The notes under the pieces are model-generated. The model had not been told where the DNA came from, searched no databases, and saw only the letters and a program-made list of their open reading frames with translations. A DNA stretch of 61,635 bases, counting the filler, from Basidiobolus ranarum (lineage: Eukaryota): the NCBI GenBank assembly GCA_040143965.1. It is 10 parts of 10 records of this genome, joined end to end, with 100 filler letters (N's around TTAATTAATTAA, not from the genome) between each part and the next. Parts side by side here need not be neighbours in the genome. Positions count along the whole stretch, not along the records: positions 49,417 to 55,476 come from JASJQH010001422.1; 9 more parts are not named here. One strand, given 5' to 3'. This document shows, piece after piece, positions 4,487 to 61,635 of the stretch. Within the stretch, counting starts at the first letter, position 1; every line of letters begins with the position of its first letter. Made by a program: the position numbers and the translations under genes.

Positions 4487-5437
4487 CAGTCTTGTCAATT
4501 TAGTATATATCCGGTAGCATCGACTTTCATCAGGCTTATAATGAGATATACTTGTCAATATCTAAATTCTGTTCAAAAAAATAACAGTCGTTAATATGCG
4601 TAAGAGTGATAAGTAATATATCGTTTCGTTAGTATTAGTATTACCTTCAATGTTCATAAAATAAAACAATCTAACTTGTTTGTACATTTAATATTCGTAA
4701 GATAGAGCTTCAATATTGATCATATTGAGAATGAAGTCGAGATACTATCACTCGTTATTAAAACACAGTCATCTCAATGCCAAACGATCGAGTCTGTATT
4801 ATATATAGGAAAAATGGTTATATTTAGATACCTAATTGCTGATATTAACATACCTGAGTGATAGTCTTCGCATATATATATGTAAATAGATAACCTTTTA
4901 CTGGTCAGTGGTAGTTCATTGTGTAAATACATGAACTCTACCAATGTACAAGCTATCCTCTCTAAGATCAGACTAAAGGTGCTACATAGCTTAGCACTAA
5001 AATAAATTATTTATTCTGCTCATCAGGAATTTGGAAGCTTTTACAGGTTTAATTTATTGTATGTCCATTCTTGTACAAATAACAAACGTGGTTCACTTCG
5101 TGATAGAGAACATAAAAGTGTTTTTTTTAAAAACCTTTCTATTCATTGTGAATGTAAACTGGTTGAAATAGCATACACTAGGCTATACTGATTAGTAAAG
5201 AGCAGTATCTTGCCGGTATCGTTTATGGATAGGATTTCTTAACAGTTTTATGATTTCTCAATACTTATTGAAAATTGGTTAATTATGCTATAGAGTATAT
5301 CAAAGTAAATAGTTGATTAAATAGCGTTTTATTTATGGTAACGTGAACTGCAAGATACACTATTCATAAATATCTACGCAGACAAGGAAATACAGTATCA
5401 TAAGCGTGGTTAGAGTTTGATCGCGAAACTAAGCTTT

Positions 5438-6085
5438 TTAAATACTTCTACGACCGTGCCTGCTGCCATATCCACCATATTCACCATTTTGCTCATATGG
5501 ACTACGTCCGTTATAGCCGGTTGGTGGGCTGCTGGGAGGATTAGATGGGTAGCCAGGTGGATTAGAAGGCTGACATGTGGTACAGGGAGGCTTCTGGGTT
5601 GATGGAGGTTGGTATGAGGGTATCTCGGGTGTTGCAGGATAGCCTGGGGGTTTGACGTTACCTGGAGGTCTGTTGTAACCAGGAGGTCTATTATAACCCG
5701 GGGGTCTGTTGTAACCAGGTGGTCTATTGTAACCCGGGGGTCTGTTGTATCCTGGGGGTCTGTTGTATCCTGGAGGTCTATTGTATCCTGGAGGTCTGTT
5801 ATAATTAGGTGGTCTGTTGTATCCTGGGGGTCTGTTGTAACCAGGAGGTTTGTTACCGCCCGGAGGCTTATCACCACCAGGAGGTTTGCCATAGCCAGGA
5901 GGTCTGTCGCCACCGGGGGGTTTGCCGTCACCAGGAGGTTTGTCACCACCAGGAGGTTTGTCGCAGCCAGGAGGTTTGCCACTACCGGGAGGTTTATCAC
6001 TACCAGGAGGTTTGTCGCCACCGGGAGGCTTACCACCACCAGGGGGTTTGTCGCCACTAGGAGGTTTGCCATAGCCAGGGGGTTT
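5438..6085 (-). CDS. Pro/Gly-rich hexapeptide-repeat protein, C-terminal part (5' end lost at contig edge)
   Basis: Stop-free frame missed by the ORF track: about 25 x 18-bp repeats encoding (K/R)PPG(G/Y/S)(D/N/G), then ...KPPCTTCQP...YGGYGSRHGRRSI-TAA (5438-5440). Confidence 0.8.
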   Translation of the reverse strand, partial: KPPGYGKPPSGDKPPGGGKPPGGDKPPGSDKPPGSGKPPGCDKPPGGDKPPGDGKPPGGDRPPGYGKPPGGDKPPGGNKPPGYNRPPGYNRPPNYNRPPGYNRPPGYNRPPGYNRPPGYNRPPGYNRPPGYNRPPGYNRPPGNVKPPGYPATPEIPSYQPPSTQKPPCTTCQPSNPPGYPSNPPSSPPTGYNGRSPYEQNGEYGGYGSRHGRRSI

Positions 6086-6185
6086 NNNNNNNNNNNNNNN
6101 NNNNNNNNNNNNNNNNNNNNNNNNNNNNNTTAATTAATTAANNNNNNNNNNNNNNNNNNNNNNNNNNNNNNNNNNNNNNNNNNNN
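6086..6185. other. Artificial contig spacer (44N-TTAATTAATTAA-44N); same at 12268-12367, 18448-18547, 24625-24724, 30801-30900, 36975-37074, 43147-43246, 49317-49416, 55477-55576
   Basis: Identical 100-nt linker with six-frame stops. Segment lengths fall monotonically (6085, 6082, 6080, 6077, 6076, 6074, 6072, 6070, 6060, 6059). Confidence 0.99.
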
Positions 6186-12267: not shown

Positions 12268-12367
12268 NNNNNNNNNNNNNNNNNNNNNNNNNNNNNNNNN
12301 NNNNNNNNNNNTTAATTAATTAANNNNNNNNNNNNNNNNNNNNNNNNNNNNNNNNNNNNNNNNNNNN

Positions 12368-14275: not shown

Positions 14276-14750
14276 TGTCAAAGTATTTAGGAGCCTGTTG
14301 GAAGTGGTTTGGACAATTGGAGAAACTCTTAGTTTTTACTTGCTGATTTATTGAGTAGAAAGTGGACATATACAGTTTTGCCAAGAGATAAACAAACAGA
14401 CATGTAGAATGTGCTAAGGTAGGTGCCAAAAACATGTGTGCAACATTTGGGACTTCTTGCATAAGCATGAAATATTCATATTTTTCAGAACTTCTCATCT
14501 GGTAAGTATAATCCAAGTAAATTCCAATTGAGAATAATTAGTGATATCTAAATGAAATATAGGATAACAAAATACTAAGCTTTGTTTGACTATATTGGTG
14601 CTTGGCAATGCTAAATTCATCACTTCCCCTTGAGTAAATAGTCAAACAAGCTAATCCTATGGCAGTTCAAAATTTAAAAGATCTCTGCCTTGCTACTGAT
14701 TTAGTTAACACATTAACAATCATGTTTTCTGTAGTATGATAAGTGAAGTC
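14276..14750 (-). mobile_element. 3' end of a Ty1/copia element: RNase H tail + polypurine tract + ~347-bp LTR (family A)
   Basis: Minus strand TENMIVNVLTKSVARQR..IGL, PPT AAGGGGAAG (14623-14631), then TG...CA LTR (14622-14276) homologous to 20410-20696 and 49864-50212. Confidence 0.7.
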
Positions 14751-18447: not shown

Positions 18448-18547
18448 NNNNNNNNNNNNNNNNNNNNNNNNNNNNNNNNNNNNNNNNNNNNTTAATTAAT
18501 TAANNNNNNNNNNNNNNNNNNNNNNNNNNNNNNNNNNNNNNNNNNNN

Positions 18548-20409: not shown

Positions 20410-20696
20410 GGCTGAAATGAGCATAGCCTAAAACCTATATATTGAACTAAGATATCACCTCGAGAGGAATTTACTTAGAAGTTCTCAGATATATAGATTT
20501 TGATAACTTGTGCTAGAAGCCCCAAACTTTGTACACATGTTCCTGGGACCTTCCTCAACATATTATACATGTTAGTTTGTTTACATCTTGACACAAGTAT
20601 AAATGTAAACTTTCTACTCAATAAATCAATAATGAAAAACCACCAATTTCTCTAATTCTCCAAACCACTTCCAACAGGCTCCCAAATACTTTAACA
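20410..20696 (+). mobile_element. Solo LTR, family A (internally deleted)
   Basis: Aligns with 49864-50212; ends TTTAACA; flanks ATAAC/ATATC (4/5 match, degenerate TSD). Confidence 0.7.
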
Positions 20697-20985
20697 ATAT
20701 CATGGTTAGCTAAGATCCAAGTAATGAGCAAGTTTCCAATAGATGTCAGTGATGGAAGCCGATTTAGAGATAGTGCAGATAATGGTAGTGCTGGTGTTTA
20801 TGACGCGGGACAGAGTATTCAATTCCTAAACTACACCAAGTAGCTTTACCAAACATGCACTAACTCTACGTTAAATATATATTCATACAGTTACCTTCAA
20901 ACACAGCAAATGAAATAATAAAAATGGATATTTATTCAATCTGTAGCTCATAATCACCTGGGTATTCTTGAAGTTCGATCTATTT

Positions 20986-21540
20986 TTAGTATTTGTCGTA
21001 ACCTTTGTTTTCTCCATAGCCGTTACCATGTCTTTTACCATTACCCTCATAATCATCTCCGTCGTATTTATCGCCACTACCACCACCACCACCACCATAT
21101 TTCTTTCCCCTTCCTCCACCACGATGATAGTCATCATTGCCGTCATATTCCTCATCATAATCACCATCACCTCTTCCACCACCGTATTTCTTTCCTCCTC
21201 CATCGCCGTGTCCATCATATTCATCATTATCATAGTCATCACTATGGCCTCCTCCACCACCACCTCCGTATTTCTTACCTCGTCCATGGCCGTATTTTCC
21301 TCCATTACCGTCACCATCATACTCGTCGTCATAGTCATCACCACCACCACCATGACCGCCGCCATATTTACCATCACCATCAAAGTCATCACCACCGCCA
21401 TATTTATGTGCTCTCCCGCCACCACCTCCACCAGGACCTACTCCCTTATAACTTGGATCGTACGAGCGCTCAAGCACGCTGGCATTGATAGCAAAGGTTG
21501 TGGAGAGAACAAGTAAGAGTTGAGCGACTGCGTACTTCAT
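20986..21540 (-). CDS. Secreted Gly/Asp/Tyr-rich low-complexity protein
   Basis: Signal peptide MKYAVAQLLLVLSTTFAINA; alternating GRGKKYGGGGG and DDYDDEYDG modules. Confidence 0.85.
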   Translation of the reverse strand: MKYAVAQLLLVLSTTFAINASVLERSYDPSYKGVGPGGGGGGRAHKYGGGDDFDGDGKYGGGHGGGGDDYDDEYDGDGNGGKYGHGRGKKYGGGGGGGHSDDYDNDEYDGHGDGGGKKYGGGRGDGDYDEEYDGNDDYHRGGGRGKKYGGGGGGSGDKYDGDDYEGNGKRHGNGYGENKGYDKY

Positions 21541-21877
21541 TGTTGAGATGATTAATAAATATACAGAGAAAGAAGAGTATTATATACTCGACCGAAATAG
21601 TGTTCAAATGTAGATACATACTGATCGATGTACTGTTATGAAGTATATTTAAGTTAAGCACAAACAGCATGTACGATACAGAATACTAAACGTGGTGATA
21701 TGTATTATTTGTTAAAATGTCTAACAAATCAATCCCACAACGGCCGTACAGACATGCTCTACGTATGGTATGGTGTACATCAATCTACACTTATTTGAAA
21801 TAGGTATTTGATTAAAAGCCTTTTCATGTGATAGTTAGTTGTGTCCCATAAGTTTGATTAGCAGTATTATTTGGAGA

Positions 21878-21906: not shown

Positions 21907-21937
21907 GTCAAGTTCCTCGGAACCTCTGACACTTGAA

Positions 21938-21968
<31 letters not shown>

Positions 21969-22029
21969 GGCCCCTGCACAAGGATGACACGTAAATCTTG
22001 AGTGGACACCTCTTCGGAGGACATTTTTT
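21907..22029 (+). ncRNA. U6: U6 spliceosomal snRNA
   Basis: Core AAAATTGGAACGATACAGAGAAGATTAGCATGGCCCCTGCACAAGGATGACAC (ACAGAGA box 21952-21958, AGC triad, ISL), 5' stem-loop, T6 terminator 22024-22029. Confidence 0.97.
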
Positions 22030-23970: not shown

Positions 23971-26900
23971 ACAGTTTAGGTTTTGAAATTAACGATACAG
24001 AATTTAATTTCCAATATCTTCTTAACCTTGGCAATGTTTAGCCAACCATTGTGGTTTCCACTCTGGGCAACCGAATATTGTAAAAAATGTAACGTCATTT
24101 GATTATTTAGATTGATCACACAGATACGCTGGGAAAGCTCAGATTATACTTATGATTGGAGAGTTCCCGATATTCACACAAATCATAGTATCTATACGAA
24201 AGCTTAATCATTTAATAAACCATGAATAATAATTAAACAAGAGTATATTATAGCTTCTGGGGAATAGTAACTGAGAAAGTGACAATGTTGTTGCCAATAC
24301 TATTTTACATACACATCAGTCGTATGGTAACACAACATTGATACTTACTACCAAGGTGCTGGATTTGCAGGTAACTGTTGCTGATGTATTTCCTGGTTCT
24401 ACCATTTCCAGTTGAAATACTAGTATGACTGAAGTGGAATTTTGGCCGTTGTGTGCTTGGGAAATACGATGCTACAACTACCCCTAACCCTACTCACTTG
24501 AATCGTTTGTATAAAAGTTGCTCAATGGAAACACTATCCAACTCATCTTTTCTCGGCTTCTTACTGTCAAACAATGAAATTCTCAGTTGCCGCTCTGCTT
24601 CTAACCGCCTTTGCAATGCCTTCCNNNNNNNNNNNNNNNNNNNNNNNNNNNNNNNNNNNNNNNNNNNNTTAATTAATTAANNNNNNNNNNNNNNNNNNNN
24701 NNNNNNNNNNNNNNNNNNNNNNNNAAGGAGTTGCGGCGCAGCATATCTAGAGCTGTCTACTCTATAGCATATGAAAGTGTTGATCATAATCCAAGCAAAA
24801 TCCATCGCAACCACGTTAGTATTTCGACTGTTTGCTAGACTGTAGAGATAATGTCTACAGCTAGCGGACACGCCATTGTAGTGAGCTCAAGCACTTCGAC
24901 TCGAGGCCGTTTCACCGATTCAAAGGAAGGGGCATCCAATTATGGAGTTACGATCAACACTCGATGAGCTTATCATATCAAGCTGCATGAGTTGCTGTTT
25001 TTCATTGGGTATATACACCATGACAAAATATCAAATACCAATTTAGTCAGATCATTGATAGTAATCGCTATCTGCCCACCTCTTCCCCATAACCTCTTTA
25101 CATAAAGCTCCCGTCATGTTTTCTTAAAGCTTAGATTTCAATTAACCCAATTTCCTGTCAATATATTCCAGGAAAGTCTAATCTTGACTTGGCAATACGT
25201 TTTGGTCCTTGCAAAAGCGGACATGTGCCATTGATATCTCAATAAAGTAATCTAGATTCAGACCGGCACAATAGACATGCCGCGGATACTCTCAACAACC
25301 GTAGCTACAACTCAGCTTTGATATAAAAACCAAAGCTCGCGAACTTAAGTCTAATCTTTAGGTCGAGCATGATTATTGCGCGTATCTGCCATCGAACATA
25401 CTTTTTGAGTCAAGAAGGCTTTAATGTTCTTAATATCGTAAAGGGTAGAATCCACCATGAAGATGACGTATTCCCCCGGAGTTTGTTGGCTACTGGAAAG
25501 AAAGTTGGAGCTTTGTCTGATGAACACGGAGCTTGTTGTGTCACTAACCATGGAGTGTTGGAGTTGAACCTTTTATAGAAAGTTATAACCAGTAGGGCCC
25601 ATACTAATCCACATCCGGTTACTAGAAATGAACATCAAATTTCCTATAAAAGACCAAGAATTCTTATGTAGAAGTCTTGATCGAAAAGAGAATATTAACC
25701 TTGAATTTGACATAATGTGACATAAAAAAGGGTACGTGATGGGTTGAAGGTTTAGGATAGTGTGTTCATTTTAATGTCTACATTACACAATAAGGCAATA
25801 AATTTATCAAACAATCATATTCTGTAAATGGTGAAACCGGCCCTAAAATCATGGTTATTCCACCAGTATTGAACTGAAGCCTAATGACCTTCAAGATCAG
25901 CATATATCTAACCTGTTTGGAGTAGTATTGTGATAATCTGTATTTACAGTGTTATGGGAAAATGGCATTACTTCAATATGCATGGTGCTAATACTTGGAC
26001 TGCTCTAGGGATTGGGAGCAGGTTTCTTTGCGGGTTTCTACCATAATATGGATCTGCATCAACGTTGTACCGCTTGTGTGTAGCAATACTATATATGTCG
26101 GGTATGCGAGTTTAGTATAGATAGATAGTGCTGTTAGTCGGTTCAGTTACTAGTGAGAATAGGAGAATAGACCCATGTATCAAGCCACTAGAAAGAGCTG
26201 CGAGATAAAATCATCCGATTGGAGATATCGCACTGGACCGTACAACTTAATTTTGGTATGTGTAAATCCACTTACGGTTAATCGAAGAGAGTGAGGTAAT
26301 GTAAATGCAGAAATAGTCTTACATTTTCTTTCTAGTACTCATATGTAGATATAGTTCAGGTTCTTTAGAGTGAAGATAATCAATGGCGAGTTTCTTCCGA
26401 TGGTCACTCGAAGAGATTTAGTAAAAAACCCGTTGCAGTTAAAACATCATAATAAATTTACAATTGAAATTTACTTTCAAAAATCAGTAAAATATGACAG
26501 GAAGAGGAGAAAGTGCAACTTTTAAAATTTCTTGTAGAATATATCCACAAGTGCTCTTTGAGGAAACTGTATGAAATAAACCACTATACTTCCCTGAGAA
26601 TCGTTAAGATACAGCCTTTTAGTTCGCTAAAGTAAATATAGAAATGGACCTCAGAAGGCAAGAGTTGAACTGAGTTCACTGATGCTGGCAATGCGCTTTC
26701 TATTCCACTCACTTCCTTCCCGTTGGCTACTTCTGGCCATCATCATACCTACAGAACCACATTTTTGGTCACTCTAGCGACCGGTTGAAGCGAACCATGG
26801 TTGCTAGTCGGTTTGCTACACTTAGGAATTCGTGTTCCTAATTCATCGAAAAACTAGAGACAATTGGCATAGAATAATTTAGAGGACAATATGATATGAT

Positions 26901-30800: not shown

Positions 30801-31143
30801 NNNNNNNNNNNNNNNNNNNNNNNNNNNNNNNNNNNNNNNNNNNNTTAATTAATTAANNNNNNNNNNNNNNNNNNNNNNNNNNNNNNNNNNNNNNNNNNNN
30901 GAGTGAACCAGCTGTCTTGAGTTGCTTGCTGATCATGGCCTTTGGCAACAACCAACTTCAAGCGCCTATGGATAATAGTGGGTTGATAATAGTGTTGATA
31001 ATAGTGTTGATTCTTTCAAAGATTGAGGGTAATTCTAAATTGGAATACCTTTATTAGGAAACTCCGAATTATTACATGATCAGCTGGTTTTTTTAGAATA
31101 TATCATTAAGAGTTTTAGTTCTGGGAGAATCGGTGCGATTATC

Positions 31144-36974: not shown

Positions 36975-37748
36975 NNNNNNNNNNNNNNNNNNNNNNNNNN
37001 NNNNNNNNNNNNNNNNNNTTAATTAATTAANNNNNNNNNNNNNNNNNNNNNNNNNNNNNNNNNNNNNNNNNNNNATTGGGCTTTGCTAGTGATTGATCGG
37101 TTTTGTGGTTTTCTTGGAATCCGCTGCCTCTCAATTCCGTATAAGAAGCATCATGATTAGGGGATAGTGGATTTGATGTAGCATTCGTAACCTCATTCTC
37201 TCTTTGTATTCTCTTTAACTAAGATAACTCTTTCATTGTATTTTCTCATATTGCAACTCTTGTAACTTTTTTATTTGAAAAGTGCCGCCTTTGGTTCACC
37301 AGTCTTTATGAATATATCTTAACAATCATTCACTGATCGCTTGCATATATCTCTTATCACTCTAATAAAGTACCATCTTTACTGATACATCTGTTGGTGG
37401 CTTAGTTTCCCTATTTTCTGCGAATGTCCACTATCATATGCAAGGATTATCCGTCATACATAGGGTTCACATAGCTCCATATTTATCCGACCGTCACGTG
37501 AAATATCGGAACAAATCATAATGACGGGAAATTGACATGTAGATTGAATTAACCCCAAACCACATAGACACTGTAATTGGGGAAAAAGGAATTTTTGGGA
37601 TGATCATTCGCTGGGGAAGGTGGGGGGAGGTAGATTTGGTAGGGTATTGTAACTTCAGAAATTTATTGTAATAACGATCTTTGAACCTTGACCTGGTCTT
37701 GTATAGAAAACTCGAACCTTTCTTTAACACTTGCAAAAAAAATTCAAG

Positions 37749-42715: not shown

Positions 42716-43838
42716 TGGAAAGGGGGTCGTGAAATACTGAAAGCCTAGACTTTATATTGTGACTAAGCAAATATAGGTATTCTTTACTAAAGAAAGTAAA
42801 AAAGAGTTAAAAAGAAGGAATTTGGGAGAGGATAGATTCTAAATGATATAATATATATCTATATAACCAGAGTCCTAATGAGATAGTGGTAAAACCCTAC
42901 GTACTCTGATGAGAGGCAGTATAATAAATTGTCAAATATACTCTATCTGCGCCGGGCTTATTTGCAATACACAGTAGGCAAACGATAATGATAGATAGCA
43001 CTCTTGCTGAAAAGGATTCGACAGGCCAAGAGGATGAGTAGCAAGAGGAAACAAGGATGAAAGTGAATAAAGATAACGAGTGTGAAAAAGGGGTGAGGCT
43101 AGGGATTTGATAATAAAGTTTTAAAGAATATCTGCTAGATAATTAGNNNNNNNNNNNNNNNNNNNNNNNNNNNNNNNNNNNNNNNNNNNNTTAATTAATT
43201 AANNNNNNNNNNNNNNNNNNNNNNNNNNNNNNNNNNNNNNNNNNNNGTTAAATATTTGAGGCAACTGAAGTGCAATCTAAGATGATGCGAAATACCATAC
43301 AGGAGTGTTGAATACCTCGACTGGATTGGATAACTGTAACCTTTGACCGTACCCTAACCCTGATCGTATACCTAATTTTTAGTTAATAAATGTCATCATA
43401 GTGTTGATCTTTGCCACGAATTCCTTCCTAGTCAGCTCAGAATAGAACACCAGAAAGCGGTATTATGTAAGGAAGATTCTCTTCGCAGCACAAGATCCCC
43501 AACACCAAGTCCAAAGTGACATCATGTGCTCTTCTCGGAGGTGCCTGCCGTATACACACACTGATCCAAAGAATTGGTAAGAGATACTTTGGAATAACAC
43601 AGTACCAGGTCGATTATGTCAGATTTTCACTAGTTATATCTACCAAAATGAATGATTGGTTAAGTTTTACGTTAAAGCTTTCTATTACATCTCCATCGCA
43701 CATTATTAGTAACCCGGGTATTTATATTCCAAGGCTTGACCAGGGCATATAATATCATTCCCCATTTGGAAGTCTCATCTCTTGACAGTATAAAAACCTT
43801 GGTTGGCCGAGGAGCTGTCTACACAACAAATCCTTAGA

Positions 43839-44729
43839 ATGCCTGGAGAACAATTTGTAATCAAACCTGCCACCTTGGAGGAATCCAAGCTCATTCATGA
43901 GTGGGGCGACCGTGAAGGTTGGAACTCTGGTGTTCACGACTGGAAAACCATGTTCTACGCCAACTCTGACGGATATTTGGTTGGTCATTTGGGTAACAAA
44001 CCAATCTGCTGTATAGCCATCTTCCGATATGACAACCAGGTTGCATTCATAGGCTGGTACTATGTACTGAAGGAGCATAGAGGTAAAGGCTACGGACTGA
44101 CCATATTCAATTATGCTATGAAACTCCTCGAGGGCTACAACATTGGACTTGATGGTGTTAAAGCTCAACAAGGGAACTATGCCAAGCTTGGTTTCTCCAA
44201 ATCCTACGATAACGATGTATACGAAGGGAAGGTTCCGGATGAACTAAGCCATACACATAATCTACAAGGCTTACAATTTGTGCCCTTAAATCAGATCGGA
44301 GCAGACGAAGTGTCGCGCTTCGAGTACGAGCATACCGGTCTCCTACGTCTAAAATGGTGGAAAGCTTGGTTGAATCAACCCGATTTGAACTCTCTTGCCC
44401 TTGTTGATGAGAATCAAAGAATTCTAGCCATATCGACCGCGCGTCTTACCTATAATAAGTCCTACAGTATCTCACCTCTCTATGCAACCGACATCGTCTA
44501 TGCGGAAGCCACCCTAACAGAGATGCTTAAAATGATCAAGGCCAGCTCGGATGACTCGGACATCAACTTCAGTATGATGTTGAATAGTCATAATGACCAA
44601 AGTAAACAGTTCATCGAAAAATTCCAATTGAAATTCACCATAAGTTTTGGAAGAATGTGGACTCGAGGCCTTCCTCCCAATACTGAAGTTGTAAATATTT
44701 ACGCAGCTGGTTCACCTGAAAGCGGTTAA
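43839..44729 (+). CDS. Intronless two-domain GNAT N-acetyltransferase (YitH/HolE-like)
   Basis: EGWNSG..D, FIGWYYVLKEHRGKGYG (AcCoA motif), IGLDGV.AQQ.NY.KLGF, ISPLYA, RMW; TATAAAA near 43789. Confidence 0.85.
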   Translation: MPGEQFVIKPATLEESKLIHEWGDREGWNSGVHDWKTMFYANSDGYLVGHLGNKPICCIAIFRYDNQVAFIGWYYVLKEHRGKGYGLTIFNYAMKLLEGYNIGLDGVKAQQGNYAKLGFSKSYDNDVYEGKVPDELSHTHNLQGLQFVPLNQIGADEVSRFEYEHTGLLRLKWWKAWLNQPDLNSLALVDENQRILAISTARLTYNKSYSISPLYATDIVYAEATLTEMLKMIKASSDDSDINFSMMLNSHNDQSKQFIEKFQLKFTISFGRMWTRGLPPNTEVVNIYAAGSPESG

Positions 44730-46082
44730 TCAAATAAAATTAGTATAGAATATTCAAGTAATTAATATATTTGGAAACATCATATCTGAGAATCAGTGGG
44801 AATCGGGACCAGATACTATCTATTGATTATTTTGCGTCCACAAAATAGTCCCAATTAGGTTTAGATATGGAGGTGCAATTATGCTGGCCTCTCGCCATTT
44901 GATTACTGCAATACGTAAACGTGTCAAGACCAATGAGTCAGAAATAAAATACAAATGGAAACAACAGTGTATAGTTTTAAAATTGAATTTATTATATGTA
45001 CATGGAATCCCTGTAAAAGAAATGACATTTAGAAAATGGAAATTCAAGTAAAAATAATAAGCAAGTAAGGAGATCATTAATATAGATCGTTTCTCAACAC
45101 TGATTATTTCAGGGGATTGACAGATTGTAGATACTAGATATAATCACTTCTCCTTACGAGCTTGAATTAACCTGAAGAAATACCAACCTTATAATCGGAA
45201 AACCGAGTTCAAGCGACATACCGAAAAGACCCTAATAACTGAAAAGTTGATTAATATTTGGTAATAGAATGGATTCATGGATGTTGCAAGAAGAACGTCA
45301 GAACTTCTTAGAGATTTGGTATTTCATCAACCTTGATAAGGTCTACCGTGTAAAATGTTTTCCTCATTCGAGGGTGAATTCAGTGGAATTAAAATTGATA
45401 ATTACCTTAGATATCCTAGTGGTAGGAAGAAGAAGTATGGATCCGTCGTATTCGCGAACTCAATTTATGTGCATGCTAGGTTATTTTTTTTTCATCCACA
45501 CTAAATTCCAGGGGCATAGAGATCATAGCCTGGTTTATGAGGAGATCATTAACCATGGTCTACCCTGGGCTTTGATCAATACGCGATATGAAGCTAAGCT
45601 ATTGGTTAACTAAGCCTAAAAATACAACTCGGCTTAATTTACTAGATTTTGGTTTTTAGGAAGTTGCTAGAGTTCATAAAAATAACTTAATTATGCAAAC
45701 CTAATTTACTCATTAGACCGATGACAACATATCCTAGTTACCAACATCCACAAAGACCGTATTTATAGGCTACAATCTTAAGAGTGTAAATAAATACAAA
45801 CTCATCCAAGAGCGATTGGTCTTGACTAAGTGTAGGAATTAAGAATCTCTACGCTTACTTGACATGACAAAAGTCACTTCTATAATTAGGACGAATAGAA
45901 CTAATAACACAAAGTGTTGAACGAATTAGAATAGAATTGTGTAATGTTCAGATGGTTTATTCCCATGGACTTTGGAAATATAAAACCTTCAGCCTACTCT
46001 ACATCACAAATATCAAATTCAGCCATTATTTGAATATTTATCACTATATCTTCTACCTGTATTCCGACAAGACAATCCAGAC

Positions 46083-48580: not shown

Positions 48581-49863
48581 CTTGTTAGTGAGAGGGGTTA
48601 AGAAGTAAGCGGTAACCTTAGGGAAGGATGGATTATATAGATTTTAAGGAAATTCCTGTATCACTAACACATCAACTTAATCGTTAACACAGTTGAACTT
48701 CCAGTAGTTTGCGAAACCTGATTATTAGCGAGGTGTCATATGAATTTCCTTTTTTCCAGATTCACAAGGAGAATGCAAGTAACCAACCGAATTTATTACC
48801 TGAAAAATCCATTTAAAACCATGTGTAACTACTGGACACGTTCTTTTTGCCTTTTGGCGGGTTTTGCTTTTAGATAGAGTATGTTGTTATGGGCAAAGGA
48901 TGGGTGTAGAAGACAATATCCCGCAACCCATTCATTTGATATGTTTTAATTTCTCTTCAAGGCGGACTTGGTAGCGTATCATAAGCATAACCTAGCATAC
49001 AATCTCAGCCAACCTTTCATTTAAATTTTGTGCATGTATAATATAGGAAATCCAATCAACTCTCTGATGAGGCATAGCAACGGTGGAAGATTTTCACAGT
49101 CGGACATCACCAAATCACTTTCTAGATGAATGTTACACAAAATCAAGAAGCGTGCATATTTTCGCGCCAACACCGGTGGTGGAGTCAAATATGATTAATA
49201 TCTAGTAACAATCCAATTTAGCTGTATACGTGAGATAGAGAAACCTGTACAAACCTGGCAAAAGAGTATAAGGTCAAACTCAATCGGAAAGTAACTTTTC
49301 AGTTTTCTTGAGTGAANNNNNNNNNNNNNNNNNNNNNNNNNNNNNNNNNNNNNNNNNNNNTTAATTAATTAANNNNNNNNNNNNNNNNNNNNNNNNNNNN
49401 NNNNNNNNNNNNNNNNGAACTCTATAAAAATATTCAGGAGAATATATCAAAGAGACTAGGGATTTCAAAGGTGACAAATTAGCGTTCAAGTGGTAATTGT
49501 GTAAAATTTGAGTTACGTTTTTTGCACATGTGTTGATCCATAGTTCTCTGAGATTTTAGTCAATCATTTGCAACTATTTTGCAAGATCTTGAAATTTCAC
49601 TCCTGAAACTGAACAAATTGATTAAAATCAAATCTAACTTGACGATTTTATGATGGTAAGTAAATGGTCAATCCCAAATGGATTAAAATTGTGATGGTTT
49701 TCCTATGATAACAATCCTCAAATTTCTGTTAGGGTATAAAGCTAAGCAGCATTCAAATATTGTCAACAGAATTTATCAAAAAATATACCCTACCAAATCA
49801 GATGACATCCTTGGGCCAGGTTGGAGAAGATCCAAATTAAGGAGCAGCAAGTCTCCTAATCAG

Positions 49864-50212
49864 TGTTAAAATTAGCATTGCTTAAACACCTATATAGTCA
49901 TATATAGCTTAGTACTTAGTTATCTTATAATTCACTAAGATATTATCCATTATTCTCAATTGGAATTTACTTAGAATATTTTTACCAACTTAGAAGTTCC
50001 CAGATATATAGATTTTTCAAACTTGTGCTAGAAGCCCTAAACTTTGCGCACATGTTCCTGGGACCTTCCTTAACACATACTACATGTTAGTTTGTTTACA
50101 TCTTGACAAAAACTATAAATGCCAACTTTCTACTCAATCAATCAATAAGTGAAAACCACCAATTCCTCTAATTCTCCTACCCACTTCCAACAGGCTCCCA
50201 AATACTTTAACA
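49864..50212 (+). mobile_element. Solo LTR, family A (349 bp), with a degenerate partial copy following to about 50420 and an inverted one near 51050-51230
   Basis: Terminal inverted repeat TGTTAAA...TTTAACA; homologous to copies in three other contigs. Confidence 0.8.
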
Positions 50213-50617
50213 TATTGATATCAACTTGGAAGTTTTTAGCTTAATGGACATTTCAATCTTATGCTAGAAGCCACAAACCTTTTGCACATGTTCATAGGAC
50301 CTTCCTAAAGACATTCTACATGTTCATTTGTTTATATTTTGGCAACAATAGAAATGTGAACTTTGTATTGACCATATTCATTAGTGACAAACATCATTTC
50401 ATCTAGTTCTCCAAGCTTTTGAGGCATTTTGGAAGTCTGTTGGAAGTAATTTGGAGAATTAGAGAGATTGGTGGCTTGCACTTATTGATTTTTTGGAATG
50501 AATGTGTTAGTCAACTTTAGTTTCAATACATATATCAGAGACAGAATGCAATGTATCTATAGCCTCTATACTCTAAATAGGAATATCTCTATATATATAT
50601 AACAAGTATGTCCTATT

Positions 50618-50899
50618 TGTTAAGAGTCTGGTGACTTATGGTACAAGCAGTAATTCCCAAAGAGGAAAATATGGAGTATGGTGACTGCATCCAAACACAA
50701 AGTCTAAGGCCATTCAGTTGCTTGTATAGCTGAAATGCCAAAGTATCATACATTGACAGACTAGGTTAGGATTCCCTAGCAATATAGGCATAGCATACAA
50801 GGACTGGAAGCTCAGTGGTTAGAGCACCTTGCTAGAGTGAAGGAGGTCCCAGGTTCAAATCCTGGCCAGACCAATATTTCTCCTTAAATAATTTCAACA
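50618..50899 (+). mobile_element. Solo LTR (282 bp) containing a tRNA-like sequence
   Basis: TGTTAAGA...TTTCAACA ends, perfect 5-bp TSD CTATT (50613-50617 and 50900-50904); uninterrupted homologue of the target site at about 61441-61490. Confidence 0.85.
50801..50873 (+). tRNA. tRNA-like cloverleaf (73 nt, nominal anticodon AGA, short variable loop), probably not a translational tRNA
   Basis: GGACTGG-AA-GCTC-AGTGGTTA-GAGC-A-CCTTG-CTAGAGT-GAAGG-AGGTC-CCAGG-TTCAAAT-CCTGG-CCAGACC-A. A- and B-box-like sequences present; one mismatch each in the acceptor and anticodon stems; U8 replaced by A. Confidence 0.75.
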
Positions 50900-52129
50900 C
50901 TATTACCCCTACTTATCTATTATATGCTATTATGTAAACACATGAATAACTCAAACAATTGATTTACTTCTCTACTATACATCTCATCATATTCTATTTC
51001 AAATAAAGTAACTAAAACACTATCATAAGTTGCCTCTAATACACAAAGTCATCCCCCATTTTTGTGAAGATCCTCCCACAAAATTAACTTTTATAGCTTT
51101 GTCAATATGTACATAACTCTATGTGTAGAAAGTCTTGACAAAGGTCCTAACAACATGTGTGCTAAGTTTGGCACTTCTAGCATAAGATTGTTAATATATA
51201 TATCTCACAAATTCTAAGTAAGTTCCAACTCAGAAGAGCAGTATCTCTTAGTTAAAACCAGAAAAACTAAATACCAAGCCATATATGATAAGAAAACATT
51301 TTGGCAATGCTAACTTCCAAACAAGCCACCTCCAACAAGCTTCCAAAATGCTTCAACAAGTGCAAGGGTGTAATATGACCAGCAATAATGCAGTAATATT
51401 CAGCCAGATTTTTGATGGCAAGACAGCAGCTTCTTGCTGGTATTATAATGGTAAAAAAAAACCAGCAAGAACAGAGGATGTAATTATGAGTATTCTGGTG
51501 ATGCACTATTCATATTGGAAGGCATTAACATGCCAGGAACTTACTTAAGTAATGATGAAGCATTAATCAATTTACTAGCTGTGTTCCTTTTTAGCAATAA
51601 TGCAAGTGAAGAGATTACATACCCCCATTTACATAGTAAATGAATAGTTAAGCAAAGTTCAACAGAAACACCATCAAGACCATCAACTTCCAAAATGCCT
51701 ACTTTACCAACTATTCAACACCCCTCCATATACAATATGAATAGATTTATTGCTACAATGGAATTGAAGGCAGAGCACCATAATGGCTTGTATGGAATCA
51801 TAAGTAAAAACTACCAAGTTGCTCTACAGGCCATGACAAGCACTAATGCCACTATATTCAATTAATGCAGCATTATGAAGCATCTAGTCATCAGTTAGAG
51901 AGTCACTCAACCATGACACAAGACCTTCAGAATGCTCTACTTGAGCTACAGTAACTTGCTGCTTCCTCCATCCATTTTCATCTTGGATTTTAAGCAATCC
52001 CACACCACACATATGAATGTCACCATAACAATCTAGCAGAGCAGAATATATGTTGGAACATTAAGCCTACACACCTACCCCAATTGCTTGGGCATATGAA
52101 AGTAGAAATCTCATAGGAAAACCAGCAAA

Positions 52130-55100
52130 CCAAAGGACTCTGAGTGTCAGAGCTGCTGTCACTTGCTCTGATGAATAATACTTTAACATTTCAAAACTGT
52201 GCATAATCCTGCCCAAGCTCACCTTGATTTGAGCAAATCATGGAAATAACAAGAACCAGGTGTAACTATGAAAGTTCTTAACTTATTTCATGTGGCTTAT
52301 CCTGGGTTTGTGCAAGAAAAAGGCAATTGGGCTAGCATAGGCCTATTCATGAAACATCTCAAAAATGTACACAACTATTGACTTGAAAAAGAAAGAAAAG
52401 CAGCTAAAGAAGTATGCCACAAGCAGGAAGTATGTAAACCCAAGGGAAAAGCAAAGGAGCCAGTAAAGTTAGGCTGTACTGTCCCAGTTACCAAATTCTT
52501 CACACCATTACAAAGATCTGCATTTCTAGAGTCAGATGTAACAGCAGATATACAGGGAAAGAGGCTTAATTCTGTCATGGAACCAAATACACCAGTCAGA
52601 GGAGTGCCAAAGTAGAAAGTTTGTCCAGCAACTGGCACCTCTCAACAAGGCAATAAACAAGCCAATAAAACTCATGGCTCTCCAACCTCAACTGGTACTT
52701 TTCAGAGTGTGAAAATCAGCCCCAAACCTAAAGGCAAGCAAAAGCCATGCAAAAACTGCTAAGCACCCTCAGAAGTGTAACATCACAAGGACATATAAAA
52801 AGAGTGAAAGTGCCCCAGGAGTATTTTTAAAAGTATGAAGGAAAAAATGAAGTGCAAGTATGCAGAAAGTGGAACATTCATCTTGACATTCAGTCTGGTG
52901 TTGACTGTGCAGATATCTGCAAAGAAGTTAATACAGAGTGGCACAGTATTGCAGGGTATCCACCAGATAGCTGGAAGAATGTTGTTTCATCAACATTAAT
53001 ACAATGGTGGGCTTTGATGGAGATATTTTTACAAACTTGCATCTGATATGTGCTAAACCTTGGGTATGAAGTGTTAAAGTTTTTAGAAGACTGTTGAAAG
53101 TGGTTTGTGTTGGGAATATATGGGCTGATTGGAGGAACTTTAGAAAAGTGGAGTTGTGAGTAGCTTTGTGAGATATTTATTTATTGTTCAGAAATAAAGC
53201 ATTTATACATTTTGGTGGAAATGCAGAAAACTAACACTGGGGTTTTGTTCAGAACATCTGTGGGAGTAAATGAGCTATCTTTGGGGCAATTTGGACAAGT
53301 TTAAAATTTCCAATATGGAATTGCTAATTCTCACATTATTCACACATATATATAATATATGTTCCAATTTTCAGTTAAGCAATATTTGACTAAGTAATGT
53401 TAACTAACTTATATGTGCTATATGAAGTATTTAGGTGTATAAAGATAGAGATAACCAATATGATAAAGACAATAAACTTCAACAAGAATAACCTATCAAG
53501 GATATGACTGAACTACTCCTGGGAGTAAGAAGATTTGTATCCCTAACAAAAACAAAATCAATTTGATCTGGATAGGATTCACCCTTCTGGAGCACACAAT
53601 TTGCCAGATATCTTAACAGTGAGATTGTGGCTTCCAAATGGTATTATGAAGGTAATTGCCAAACAAAAGTAAAATTTATTTCATCCAGATTAGAACCACC
53701 CTTCTGGATTGCAAAACAATCAGAGGACTGTCACATATCTGGCAGCTTGCATTTTGCCAGGGATTTTGATGGTGAGATGGAGGCTTCTTGTCAGTATTTT
53801 GATGGTAATCATATATGATAAAATATTGATCCTCATATTTGGCATGTGTTTTGTATTTTCCAACAATTTTTGCAAAAAAAATAATTTTTCAATGGCATTT
53901 TACTGGGCTAACTGCTTTAGGAATTTAAGATAATATGCATGTATTGATTTAGATATTTTAGGCTTTGTATTCCAGCCATAATGAGAATCAAAAAACACAA
54001 GAATCTCATTGTGCTAAGTCTCTGCATATGCACAAACTTGATTGATCAGACATAACTCAGCAACATCAACCCCTAACAGAAATATGAGGTTGCTTACCAT
54101 AAGAAAACCATCACAATTTTAATCCATTTTTGATTGACTTTTACTTACCATCATAAAATTGTCAAGTTAGATTTGATTTTAATCATTTTTTTCAGTTTCT
54201 GGAGTGAAATTTCAAATTCTTGCAGAATAGCTGCACATGATTGGCTATAATCTCAGAAAACTATAGATCAACACATGTGCAAAATACATGACTTGAATTT
54301 TACACATTTACCACTGGAAGTATAATTTGTCACCATCAAAATACCTAGTTTCTTTGATGTATTCCCCAGAGTATTTTTTTAGAGTTCTTCATACCCAAGG
54401 TTTGGCTCACATCCAACACAAGTTTGAGTCAATTTCTCCATTGAAGCACACCATGTTATTAATGTTGCTGAATCAACATTCTTCCAGCTATATGGTGGAT
54501 ACCCCACTAAATTGTGCCACTCTGTATTAACTTCTTCCCAGATATCTGCATGATCAACACCAGACTGAATATGAAGTTGAATATTGCTCTTCTGAAACCA
54601 CTTTCTGCATATTTTCACTGCGTTTTCACTTCTTAAGCACTTTACTATTTTTATATGTCCTTTTAGTGTAACATTACTGAAGGTGCTTTGCAGTGTTTGT
54701 GTGGCTTTATGCTTGCCTTTAAGTTAGGGCCTGATTTTGACACTTTGAACAGAGCCACTAGAGGTTCAAGAGCCATGAGTCTTATTTGCTGGTATTTTGG
54801 CTTGTTGAGAGATGTCAGGTATTGGATAAACTTCCAAATGTAGCAATCTTCCAGCTGGTGTACTTGGTGCCATGGTAAAATTAAGCCTTTTTGCCAGTAA
54901 ATCTGCCATAGTATTTGACTCTGGTAATACAGATCTTTGTATGATGTGAAGAATTTGGTATGGGGGAGAGTAGAGCCTAAACTCACTGGCTCCTTTGTTT
55001 TTCTTGTGGGTTTACTAACTTTGTGCTCCTTAAATACTTCTTTAGCTACTTTCCTTTTGATTCCTAGTTGATAGTTGCATACATTTTTGAGATGTTTCAT

Positions 55101-55335
55101 GAATAGGACTATACTGTCTCAACTGCCATTTGCTTGCAAAAATCCAGGATAAGCCACACAAGATAGATCAAGAACCTTCAGAGTAATGCCTGGTTTTTGG
55201 TTTTTCACAATTGGTGCAAATCAAGGTTATTTTGGGCAAGATTTGCAATAGTTTCCAAAATGTTAAACCATTCATCATCAGAGCAAGTAATGGCAGCTCT
55301 GACATTCCAAGTCTTTTGGTTTGCTAGTTTTTATT
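52130..55335. repeat. Large inverted pair of a dispersed element (about 52130-53075 + versus 54385-55335 -); 49417-49734 matches 54071-54390 inverted
   Basis: Alignable blocks such as ATGAAACATCTCAAAAATGTA and paralogous translations IQSGVD.ADI..EVNTEWH...GYPP.SWKNV. Confidence 0.85.
53113..53252 (+). repeat. ~140-bp direct repeat with 55337-55476
   Basis: GGAGGAACTTTAGAAAAGTGGAGTTGTGA...AAACTAACACTGGGGTT.TGTTCAG in both copies. Confidence 0.9.
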
Positions 55336-55576
55336 GGGAAAATATGGGCTGTTTGGAGGAACTTTAGAAAAGTGGAGTTGTGAATAGCTTTGTGAGATAA
55401 TTGTATATTGTCCAGAAATAAAGCATTTATACTTTTTGGTGGAAATACAGAAAACTAACACTGGGGTTGTGTTCAGNNNNNNNNNNNNNNNNNNNNNNNN
55501 NNNNNNNNNNNNNNNNNNNNTTAATTAATTAANNNNNNNNNNNNNNNNNNNNNNNNNNNNNNNNNNNNNNNNNNNN

Positions 55577-55771
55577 TGGGCCAGCTTTGTATCCTTTGCA
55601 TGGGAAAACTCCCAAAGGACCATTCATATCATAGTCGATATCGTGGATGGACTGGTAGTATTTACTGAAAGTAGATTTACGAGGTGCGGGTGATTGAATT
55701 TCCATATGTCCAGATACAGAGCCAAACAAGTAAAGAGATGCGGAAACCAGGAAGCAAGATAGATTTTTCAT
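55577..55771 (-). CDS. AA11 LPMO paralogue, N-terminus only (truncated by contig edge)
   Basis: Signal peptide + HMEIQSPAPR...FPCKG, identical in the mature part to 56790-57701. Confidence 0.85.
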
Positions 55772-56789: not shown

Positions 56790-57701
56790 CTAACAAGCCC
56801 CCAAATCGGTCCACACGCCTTGTTGGCTCGGAGTTTCATTCTGAGTCCACCATTTTGCTTGCCAAAGATGTCCATTATAGGTTACCTTTTGGGCCCCATT
56901 ATAAGCAGTACTTCCATTCCAGGCGGCGACTCCAGCACAGGATCCGGTTCCTGGATCGTTTGTTGCGGTTGGCTTAGTTGAAGTGGTGGTAGTGGATGAA
57001 GGTTTGGCTGTGGTAGTCACAGGAGGCTTGGTGGTAGAAGTAGTAGTAGTGGTAGGGTCTGGGTTCGAACCACCTCCTGAGGCTCCAACAGTAATGATTG
57101 GCCGTTTGTCAAGCAACTCATGGCCATCCCCTTCACCAATGTCCATCTCCGGGATGGTAGGATAGCCAGGAAGGTTAGCAACCATAAGCTTAGGACCGGT
57201 AATTGTCCCACCAGGGGTTCCACCGTTAATGGTAATATCGACACAGTTCATGTAGTACTCTCGATTACCTTCTGCGTTAACCCAAGTCCATGCCAAAGTA
57301 GCCCGTTTGCTAGGAGGTGCAGTGGCCGGGATTGGAACATCGAATGTGAGTCCACTCTTGAAGCAGTTACGAACCACAGTCTTTAAAACGACGAAAGTCT
57401 GATCGTTGTCATAAGAAAGAGCAAATTGGCAATGGCCACCATTGTGGGTGTTTCCTGGAGCAAACTGGACTTTAACGGTGTCGCCTGCATTGTAGGTGTA
57501 CTCAACTGGGCCAGCTTTGTATCCTTTGCATGGGAAAACTCCCAAAGGACCATTCATATCATAGTCGATATCGTGGATGGACTGGTAGTATTTACTGAAA
57601 GTAGATTTACGAGGTGCAGGTGATTGAATTTCCATATGTCCAGATACAGAGCCAAACAAGCAAAGAGATGCGGCGACCAGTAGGCAAGACAAACCTCTCA
57701 T
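56790..57701 (-). CDS. AA11-like lytic polysaccharide monooxygenase with Thr/Pro linker and CBM5/12 chitin-binding module
   Basis: His1 after signal peptide, FPCK, THNGGHCQFALSYD, AWTWVN..GNREYYMNCVDI; C-terminal AWNGSTAY...VTYNGHLWQAKWWTQ.ETP....W..LG.C. Confidence 0.88.
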   Translation of the reverse strand: MRGLSCLLVAASLCLFGSVSGHMEIQSPAPRKSTFSKYYQSIHDIDYDMNGPLGVFPCKGYKAGPVEYTYNAGDTVKVQFAPGNTHNGGHCQFALSYDNDQTFVVLKTVVRNCFKSGLTFDVPIPATAPPSKRATLAWTWVNAEGNREYYMNCVDITINGGTPGGTITGPKLMVANLPGYPTIPEMDIGEGDGHELLDKRPIITVGASGGGSNPDPTTTTTSTTKPPVTTTAKPSSTTTTSTKPTATNDPGTGSCAGVAAWNGSTAYNGAQKVTYNGHLWQAKWWTQNETPSQQGVWTDLGAC

Positions 57702-58079
57702 ATTTTCAGTACTAGATGGCAGAATTGTTGGAACTGGTGTTGAACCTTTCTCTTTATATACTTCAATGTTCTCGTGTTAGTGCACTGCTCTTGTGAAGAT
57801 ATTTGCCGATAGCACTTGGTTTATTTCACAAACGAGTTCGACTTCTTGTTCGAGTAACTAGCTACTATATGTGTGCTCCCAAAATACAACAATTTTTACC
57901 TGATGGGAGATATTTGCATAATATTAACAGGTAAAAGTGGTGTGAGAAGGAAGGCATGTTCAATAAGTACATGTATGGTAATAGAGAACTTGTAATACCG
58001 AGAGAAATACCGGAAAGGAACATTCAACTCATTTTCTAATGAACAATAAGAATTTATTTTATGAGATAAACGTAGATCT

Positions 58080-61250: not shown

Positions 61251-61635
61251 CAATACACAATAGTATCAGAGTAACAGAGAAAGGAGTAGAAACTATAGAT
61301 GCCTGTGTCACAGATATTGTAACCAATATTTGAGAATTTGTTGGATAATTAATCTGTATTCAACATCTTAGGTTACATTAGTTTTGAGACATTTGTAAGA
61401 GACAGGAAGTAATGTATATATAGTCCTTGTATATTAATCAGGAATATGTCTATATCTATATAACAAGTATGTTTTGTTACCCTTGTTAATTTACATAGAT
61501 TTAACCTCTTTTAGTCAAACCATTGAAATACCATCATAAAATTGGCAAGCCAAATTTAGTTTAATATATGTTGCTTACTTGACAAACTGAAATATTCAGA
61601 TCTCACAAAGTGGTTTCTTATTTTTGGCTACAATA

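Follow-up and report, generated by a model that had tools for sequence, protein, structure and literature searches.

A solo LTR with a tRNA-derived sequence in Basidiobolus ranarum, most likely from a Helenus/TRIMp3-type element

Small LTR elements with Pol III-type sequences

Helenus (TRIMp3) elements are small non-autonomous LTR retrotransposons (TRIMs) that carry a tRNA-like sequence within their LTRs and have been described from rust fungi and some animals (Kojima, 2024, Biology 13:119; PMC10886601). The fungal set, as given in that article, consists of 113 families in Pucciniales together with elements from Agaricus, Coprinopsis, and Amylostereum. Their LTRs measure 120-323 bp and share the conserved motifs TRGCY/YGG (box A) and GGTTC (box B) (PMC10886601). 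Fungal Helenus elements are flanked by target site duplications (TSDs) of 5 bp and are often present as solo LTRs, and of some families nothing but fragments and solo LTRs is left; they are likely mobilised by elements of the Copia superfamily, which also produce 5-bp duplications (PMC10886601). The families were proposed to arise through the insertion of a SINE2 into an LTR, and the article describes transcription of Helenus by Pol III as not validated (PMC10886601).

The tRNA-like sequences of Helenus LTRs also leave a trace in genome annotation. Disagreement between the anticodon and the isotype model is widespread among them, and spurious predictions of tRNA-Thr-AGT, Ser-AGA, Ala-AGC, and Sup-CTA genes, amounting to hundreds per rust genome, were traced to Helenus LTRs; many spurious tRNA-Ser-AGA predictions are reported for Puccinia, Uromyces, and Cronartium (PMC10886601).

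An earlier note on the DNA described here had cited the Cassandra TRIMs of plants as the precedent for a Pol III gene inside an LTR. They are not the only one, as Helenus/TRIMp3 elements, fungal families included, are already described (PMC10886601). The terms "Basidiobol", "Zoopagomycota", "Mucoromycota", and "Entomophthor" are absent from the text of that article, of which Table S1 may list more taxa than Table 1. We found no report of LTR, TRIM, or tRNA-like elements in Basidiobolus, nor of Helenus being extended to early-diverging fungi, in the literature as far as it was accessible to us; one further article (PMC13570524) merely cites the Helenus concept in the portion available.

Borders and insertion of the element

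The window analysed here is a 61.6-kb stretch of Basidiobolus ranarum DNA made of ten contigs, from 6085 down to 6059 bp in length, which are joined by N44-TTAATTAATTAA-N44 linkers at 6086-6185, 12268-12367, 18448-18547, 24625-24724, 30801-30900, 36975-37074, 43147-43246, 49317-49416, and 55477-55576, so that distance and synteny across the linkers are meaningless. The element lies in the ninth contig, termed piece 9 (49417-55476), and a paralogue of its empty site is located where piece 10 ends.

The pentamer CTATT at 50613-50617 is followed by a unit of 282 bp (50618-50899), which runs from TGTTAAGAGT to AATTTCAACA, and then by a second CTATT at 50900-50904. The unit has TG..CA ends, beginning with TGTTAA and finishing with TTCAACA, and its termini form imperfect inverted repeats with seven of ten positions matching (TGTTAAGAGT versus TGTTGAAATT). 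Its G+C content is 41.5%, compared with 37.3% for the whole window. TGTT...AACA ends are common among Ty1/Copia LTRs, and we counted them in favour of an LTR. The orientation of the unit is assumed to be the plus strand, following that of the tRNA-like module inside it.

To examine the insertion, we deleted the element together with one of the CTATT copies, joined the flanks, and used them as a query against the window. The joined flanks matched 61375-61482 across the junction (76.9% over 108 nt, E 7.5e-18), where the local alignment reads ATATAACAAGTATGTCCTATTACCCCT in the joined flanks and ATATAACAAGTATGTTTTGTTACCCTT in the paralogue. The paralogue holds a single TTGTT in place of the two CTATT copies that bracket the element. 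The host repeat hit by the LTR extends over 50492-51077, with approximate borders, as judged by its local alignment to 61340-61635, and is interrupted at 50617/50905. Since the joined flanks align across the empty site, the entire 282 bp, including the tRNA-like part, was inserted as one unit. Insertion in one piece with a 5-bp target duplication is the signature of an integrase-mediated insertion of an LTR element, followed by LTR-LTR recombination. The earlier note had described these ends and the perfect CTATT duplication, all of which were borne out by the sequence and the empty site. It had also placed an uninterrupted copy of the host repeat at about 61441-61490; such a copy does exist, and the flanks align with it over the longer interval given above, but it belongs to a separate, unlinked contig.

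We found no terminal direct repeats within the 282 bp. The unit is therefore not a complete miniature element, and that reading was dropped in favour of a solo LTR. Its TG..CA ends and 5-bp TSD are those of Helenus/TRIMp3 elements, for which TSDs of 4-6 bp, and of 5 bp in fungi, are the mark, and its solo state and its length, which falls within 120-323 bp, also resemble those of Helenus LTRs.

Could the unit be something other than an LTR? Ginger-type DNA transposons produce 4-5-bp duplications and have TGT..ACA ends, and the unit could be a non-autonomous DNA transposon with duplications and ends of this kind or, alternatively, an atypical SINE-like retroposon. The short, imperfectly inverted termini would suit the former, and a single copy was seen, to which a class was assigned by end motifs and TSD length alone. 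However, the inverted termini are just about 4-6 bp long, much shorter than the terminal inverted repeats of DNA transposons. Upstream of the tRNA-like head, 183 bp are enclosed by the TSD, an arrangement inexplicable by a Pol III-transcribed SINE. A tail is also absent. We consider both of these origins very unlikely.

The comparison with SINE2 elements, which are tRNA-derived SINEs, leads in the same direction. Like the Basidiobolus LTR, a SINE2 holds a decayed tRNA head with A and B boxes, and SINE2 is the proposed source of the Helenus module (PMC10886601). A SINE2 would be expected to have its tRNA head at the 5' end, a LINE-type tail, and a TSD of variable length, whereas the module in Basidiobolus lies 183 bp inside the unit and near its 3' end, and the unit, bounded by TG..CA and a 5-bp TSD, ends in ...TTTCAACA without a tail. 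From the position of the module, the ends, the TSD, and the missing tail, we infer that the unit was mobilised by the machinery of LTR elements and not by that of a LINE.

The tRNA-like module

A single tRNA was predicted by ARAGORN in the whole window, a tRNA-Ser(aga) at 50801-50873 on the plus strand. The Rfam tRNA model (RF00005) matched the same interval with 54.9 bits, where the gathering score is 29, and covered 71 of 71 model positions, with an E-value of 2.7e-10 in a 4-kb search and of 4.2e-9 over the whole window. The only Rfam match at the site was to tRNA, with none to 5S rRNA. The cloverleaf of this pseudo-tRNA comprises 73 nt, with the anticodon AGA and a variable loop of 5 nt. 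It starts at position 184 of the 282-bp unit, and its 3' end lies 26 nt before the end of the LTR. The canonical length, the box-like sequences, and the distance to the LTR end had all been noticed earlier, as had the conflict between the Ser anticodon and the short variable arm, and our predictions agree on each point.

The A-box-like sequence AAGCTCAGTGGT occupies 50808-50819 (plus strand, tRNA positions 8-19), and the B-box-like sequence GGTTCAAATCC occupies 50852-50862 (plus strand, tRNA positions 52-62). Compared with the Helenus motifs TRGCY...YGG and GGTTC (PMC10886601), the module reads AAGCT..TGG and GGTTC. RGCY, YGG, and GGTTC are thus all present, and the one departure is the first base of box A, which is A instead of T. 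The combination of a tRNA-derived sequence inside the LTR with both a box A and a box B is itself the Helenus design, and a Ser-AGA prediction at odds with a class-I variable loop matches the isotype disagreement reported for Helenus (PMC10886601).

The folding energy of the cloverleaf is unexceptional. A minimum free energy of -23.2 kcal/mol (z = -0.43) was calculated for it, and folds as good were obtained from 62 of 200 shuffled sequences; we thus rejected thermodynamic stability as evidence for the cloverleaf, which is recognised through homology rather than stability. At minimum energy, the module folds into a cloverleaf whose anticodon arm has slipped to a 12-nt loop.

U8 is near-invariant in tRNAs, and eukaryotic tRNA-Ser carries a long variable arm. 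At position 8, the module has an A, and Rfam marked two non-standard stem pairs, A3·A70 in the acceptor stem and G·G in the anticodon stem. Because of the A8, these two pairs, and the short variable arm with a Ser anticodon, 50801-50873 reads as a decayed copy of a tRNA and not as a working tRNA. A functional gene for tRNA-Ser(AGA) or another isotype, located by chance in a mobile element, would agree with the full-length call by both ARAGORN and Rfam. Against it stand the A8 in place of U8, the two mismatches in stems that should be intact, the missing long variable arm, the slipped anticodon arm of the minimum-energy fold, and the lack of a nearby Pol III terminator, which together make a functional gene extremely improbable.

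The longest T-run within the LTR is of three residues, with no TTTT in 50618-50899, and the first TTTT 3' of the module is found at 51059, 186 nt past the end of the module. The earlier note had given this same position, which stands. The lack of T-runs is statistically unremarkable: TTTT was lacking from 203 of 1160 sampled windows of 282 bp, and 20% of the sampled positions were at least 258 nt away from the next TTTT. The idea that T-runs are depleted because selection favours read-through by Pol III was accordingly rejected as not significant. No Pol III terminator that would define an R region is visible in the LTR.

In this respect, the Basidiobolus LTR differs from Cassandra, whose LTRs hold a conserved terminator for Pol III that defines an R of 18 bp (PMC10886601). 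Both place a promoter module derived from a Pol III gene in an LTR, that of a miniature LTR element in Cassandra and probably also in Basidiobolus. The module of Cassandra is derived from 5S rRNA, whereas that of Basidiobolus is derived from tRNA, and neither a 5S module nor a Pol III terminator occurs in the Basidiobolus LTR. The Ajax TRIMs of nemerteans, which are assigned to the same proposed TRIMp3 class and also have 5-bp TSDs (PMC10886601), differ in having a partial 5S promoter fragment only and in their animal host.

We also weighed a one-off capture, in which an ordinary Pol II-type LTR gained a tRNA pseudogene or a fragment of a tRNA-derived SINE in this copy or in a small sub-lineage, so that the module would not be a conserved functional part of a family. 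The origin proposed for Helenus by Kojima, insertion of a SINE2 into an LTR, implies that such intermediates should exist (PMC10886601). A 6-bp direct repeat, CAATAT, flanks 50786-50871, and the module is decayed, its conservation not being visible in a single copy. However, by a rough estimate made without a control, about 0.3 chance 6-mer repeats are expected in flanks of this size. Neither an A-rich nor a simple-repeat tail follows the module, and CCA is not encoded in it, so that an origin by retro-copying of a mature tRNA is excluded. We regard a one-off capture as unlikely, though the least so among the alternatives to a Helenus/TRIMp3-type solo LTR.

Parent element, copies, and host lineage

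The remaining alternative concerns the size of the parent. The LTR might belong to an autonomous or a large non-autonomous (LARD-type) LTR retrotransposon rather than to a TRIM, with the tRNA-derived stretch having no Pol III role. "Not a few" LTRs in Repbase contain tRNA-like parts, and only some of these are TRIMs (PMC10886601), and the size of the parent is not readable from a solo LTR. The near-complete cloverleaf with both boxes, matching every position of the tRNA model, is instead the pattern of TRIMp3, and the ORFs scanned in the window showed neither a reverse transcriptase (RT) nor an integrase, which is weak evidence. On balance, a larger parent appears quite unlikely.

All four alternatives thus rank below a solo LTR of an LTR retroelement with a tRNA-derived sequence in its LTR, most probably a small TRIM, non-autonomous and of the Helenus/TRIMp3 type, which we favour with reasonable, though far from complete, confidence. 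The proposal of the earlier note, a solo LTR bearing a tRNA-derived Pol III-type module, fits the TG..CA ends, the 5-bp TSD, the empty site, the A- and B-box-like motifs, and the conflict of the Ser anticodon with the variable arm. Every feature that can be tested on the element fits the published description of fungal Helenus, with which the comparison was made. What sets it apart, besides the first base of box A, is the host, as B. ranarum belongs to Basidiobolomycota, unlike Pucciniales and the three genera of Agaricomycetes listed for Helenus (PMC10886601).

According to the proposed mechanism, recombination between two LTRs would have left 50618-50899 behind as a solo LTR. In a full-length element, by analogy with Helenus and Cassandra, the tRNA-derived A and B boxes would recruit TFIIIC, TFIIIB, and Pol III, and transcription would begin at about the +1 position of the tRNA in the 5' LTR. 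The transcript would then cover the final ~100 nt of that LTR, the primer binding site (PBS), a short internal region, and the polypurine tract (PPT) and extend into the 3' LTR. Again by analogy, an autonomous element, probably of the Copia type, would act in trans to package this RNA, reverse-transcribe it, and integrate the product. The solo copy in the window would be at most an orphan Pol III/TFIIIC site. An intact cloverleaf would invite cutting of the genomic RNA by RNase P/Z, which, more speculatively, the defects in the stems might lessen. The earlier note had also considered the tRNA-like sequence as the element's own primer. In Helenus, the tRNA-like sequence of the LTR is not complementary to the PBS (PMC10886601), which by analogy argues against such a role.

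For a TRIM, we looked for two LTRs flanking a PBS and a PPT, in an element below about 1-1.3 kb overall and without coding capacity. In the 61.6-kb window, whose ten unlinked contigs make up a very small fraction of the genome, we found a single solo LTR, with no second copy of the 282-bp unit, no paired-LTR copy, and no PBS or PPT. A scan of 30 of the window's 33 ORFs of at least 120 aa, and of 10 of the 15 ORFs of at least 70 aa on the contig of the element, revealed no RT, integrase, or gag domains.

Searches in other collections carry no weight on copy number in Basidiobolus. When metagenomes were scanned for a 20-nt D-arm motif that includes A8, six loci were returned. Compared with them by BLAST, the whole element aligned over just 21-33 nt in the D-arm region, and ARAGORN predicted no tRNA at the sites, although one unrelated tRNA-Arg lay elsewhere in one of the loci; these loci were rejected as relatives. 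A 21-nt T-arm/acceptor motif gave no matches in either viral or prokaryote genome collections, as expected for fungal DNA. A minus-strand open frame of 49 aa in the 5' part of the LTR, used in a protein search to find copies miscalled as ORFs, likewise gave no matches.

That Basidiobolus hosts a multi-copy TRIMp3 (Helenus-type) family whose LTRs retain a Pol III-type tRNA module is a tentative proposal, which we hold at somewhat below even chances. Such a family may have been born independently, or its class-I "Ser-AGA" pseudo-tRNA may be homologous with that of rust Helenus, in which case deep ancestry or horizontal transfer would be implied. If the family is confirmed, the known fungal range of LTR elements bearing Pol III promoters would extend from Dikarya (rusts and a few Agaricomycetes) to an early-diverging phylum, and a further case would be added to the question of whether this design arises repeatedly. 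The design is not new in kind, being essentially the published Helenus/TRIMp3 concept, and it opens no new mechanism; the novelty probably lies in the host lineage and rests on a single solo LTR. In practical terms, elements of this kind inflate tRNA gene counts, and in the annotation of Basidiobolus genomes, a tRNA-Ser-AGA call with a short variable arm should be expected to represent an LTR-borne pseudo-tRNA.

Contig context and other observations

Piece 9 is rich in old repeats that are also present on other pieces. It contains an inverted pair of 960 bp (52118-53071 versus 55331-54387, 78%), another inverted repeat (49417-49734 versus 54387-54071, 86%), and the repeat 53103-53252 versus 55327-55476 (92%), while a piece-9 repeat of ~220-350 bp recurs on other contigs at 14276-14624 and 20473-20696. 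No recognisable coding domain was found on piece 9 in 10 of its 15 ORFs of at least 70 aa and in a 151-aa ORF. The sole ORF of this piece above 120 aa (54663-55118) has one relative in the database, a hypothetical protein of B. ranarum (67% identity, E 5.6e-18, with 46% of the query aligned). On piece 8, an ORF for a GT34 glycosyltransferase shows 99% identity along its entire length to a B. ranarum protein, and the next best match is from B. meristosporus (69%). These two matches, along with the repeats common to several pieces, assign the element to B. ranarum.

Tandem or internally repetitive stretches with units 68-76% identical to each other are located at or near contig ends (5640-6085, 17421-17877, and 21075-21351). 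Long ORFs overlapping on both strands at 5410-6133 and 20883-21579 had no Pfam match. Piece 10 carries a direct repeat of 183 bp (55577-55759 and 57507-57689, 96.7%), the copies being 1.7 kb apart; the second copy overlaps an ORF containing CBM5/12 (56790-57776). Either a recent segmental duplication or an artefact of the assembly could account for the repeat.

Two other non-coding RNA matches were observed in the window. A weak C/D-box snoRNA-like match to snoU61 at 45294-45372 on the minus strand (E 5e-4; 34.7 bits, short of the 55 set as gathering score) adjoins the ORF of a GNAT acetyltransferase at 43794-44729. A U6 snRNA gene is located at 21907-22028 on the plus strand (78.5 bits); it ends in TTTTT, has no apparent intron, and differs from the model by a longer 5' stem-loop (12 versus 5 loop positions) and a 9-nt insert near the 3' end.
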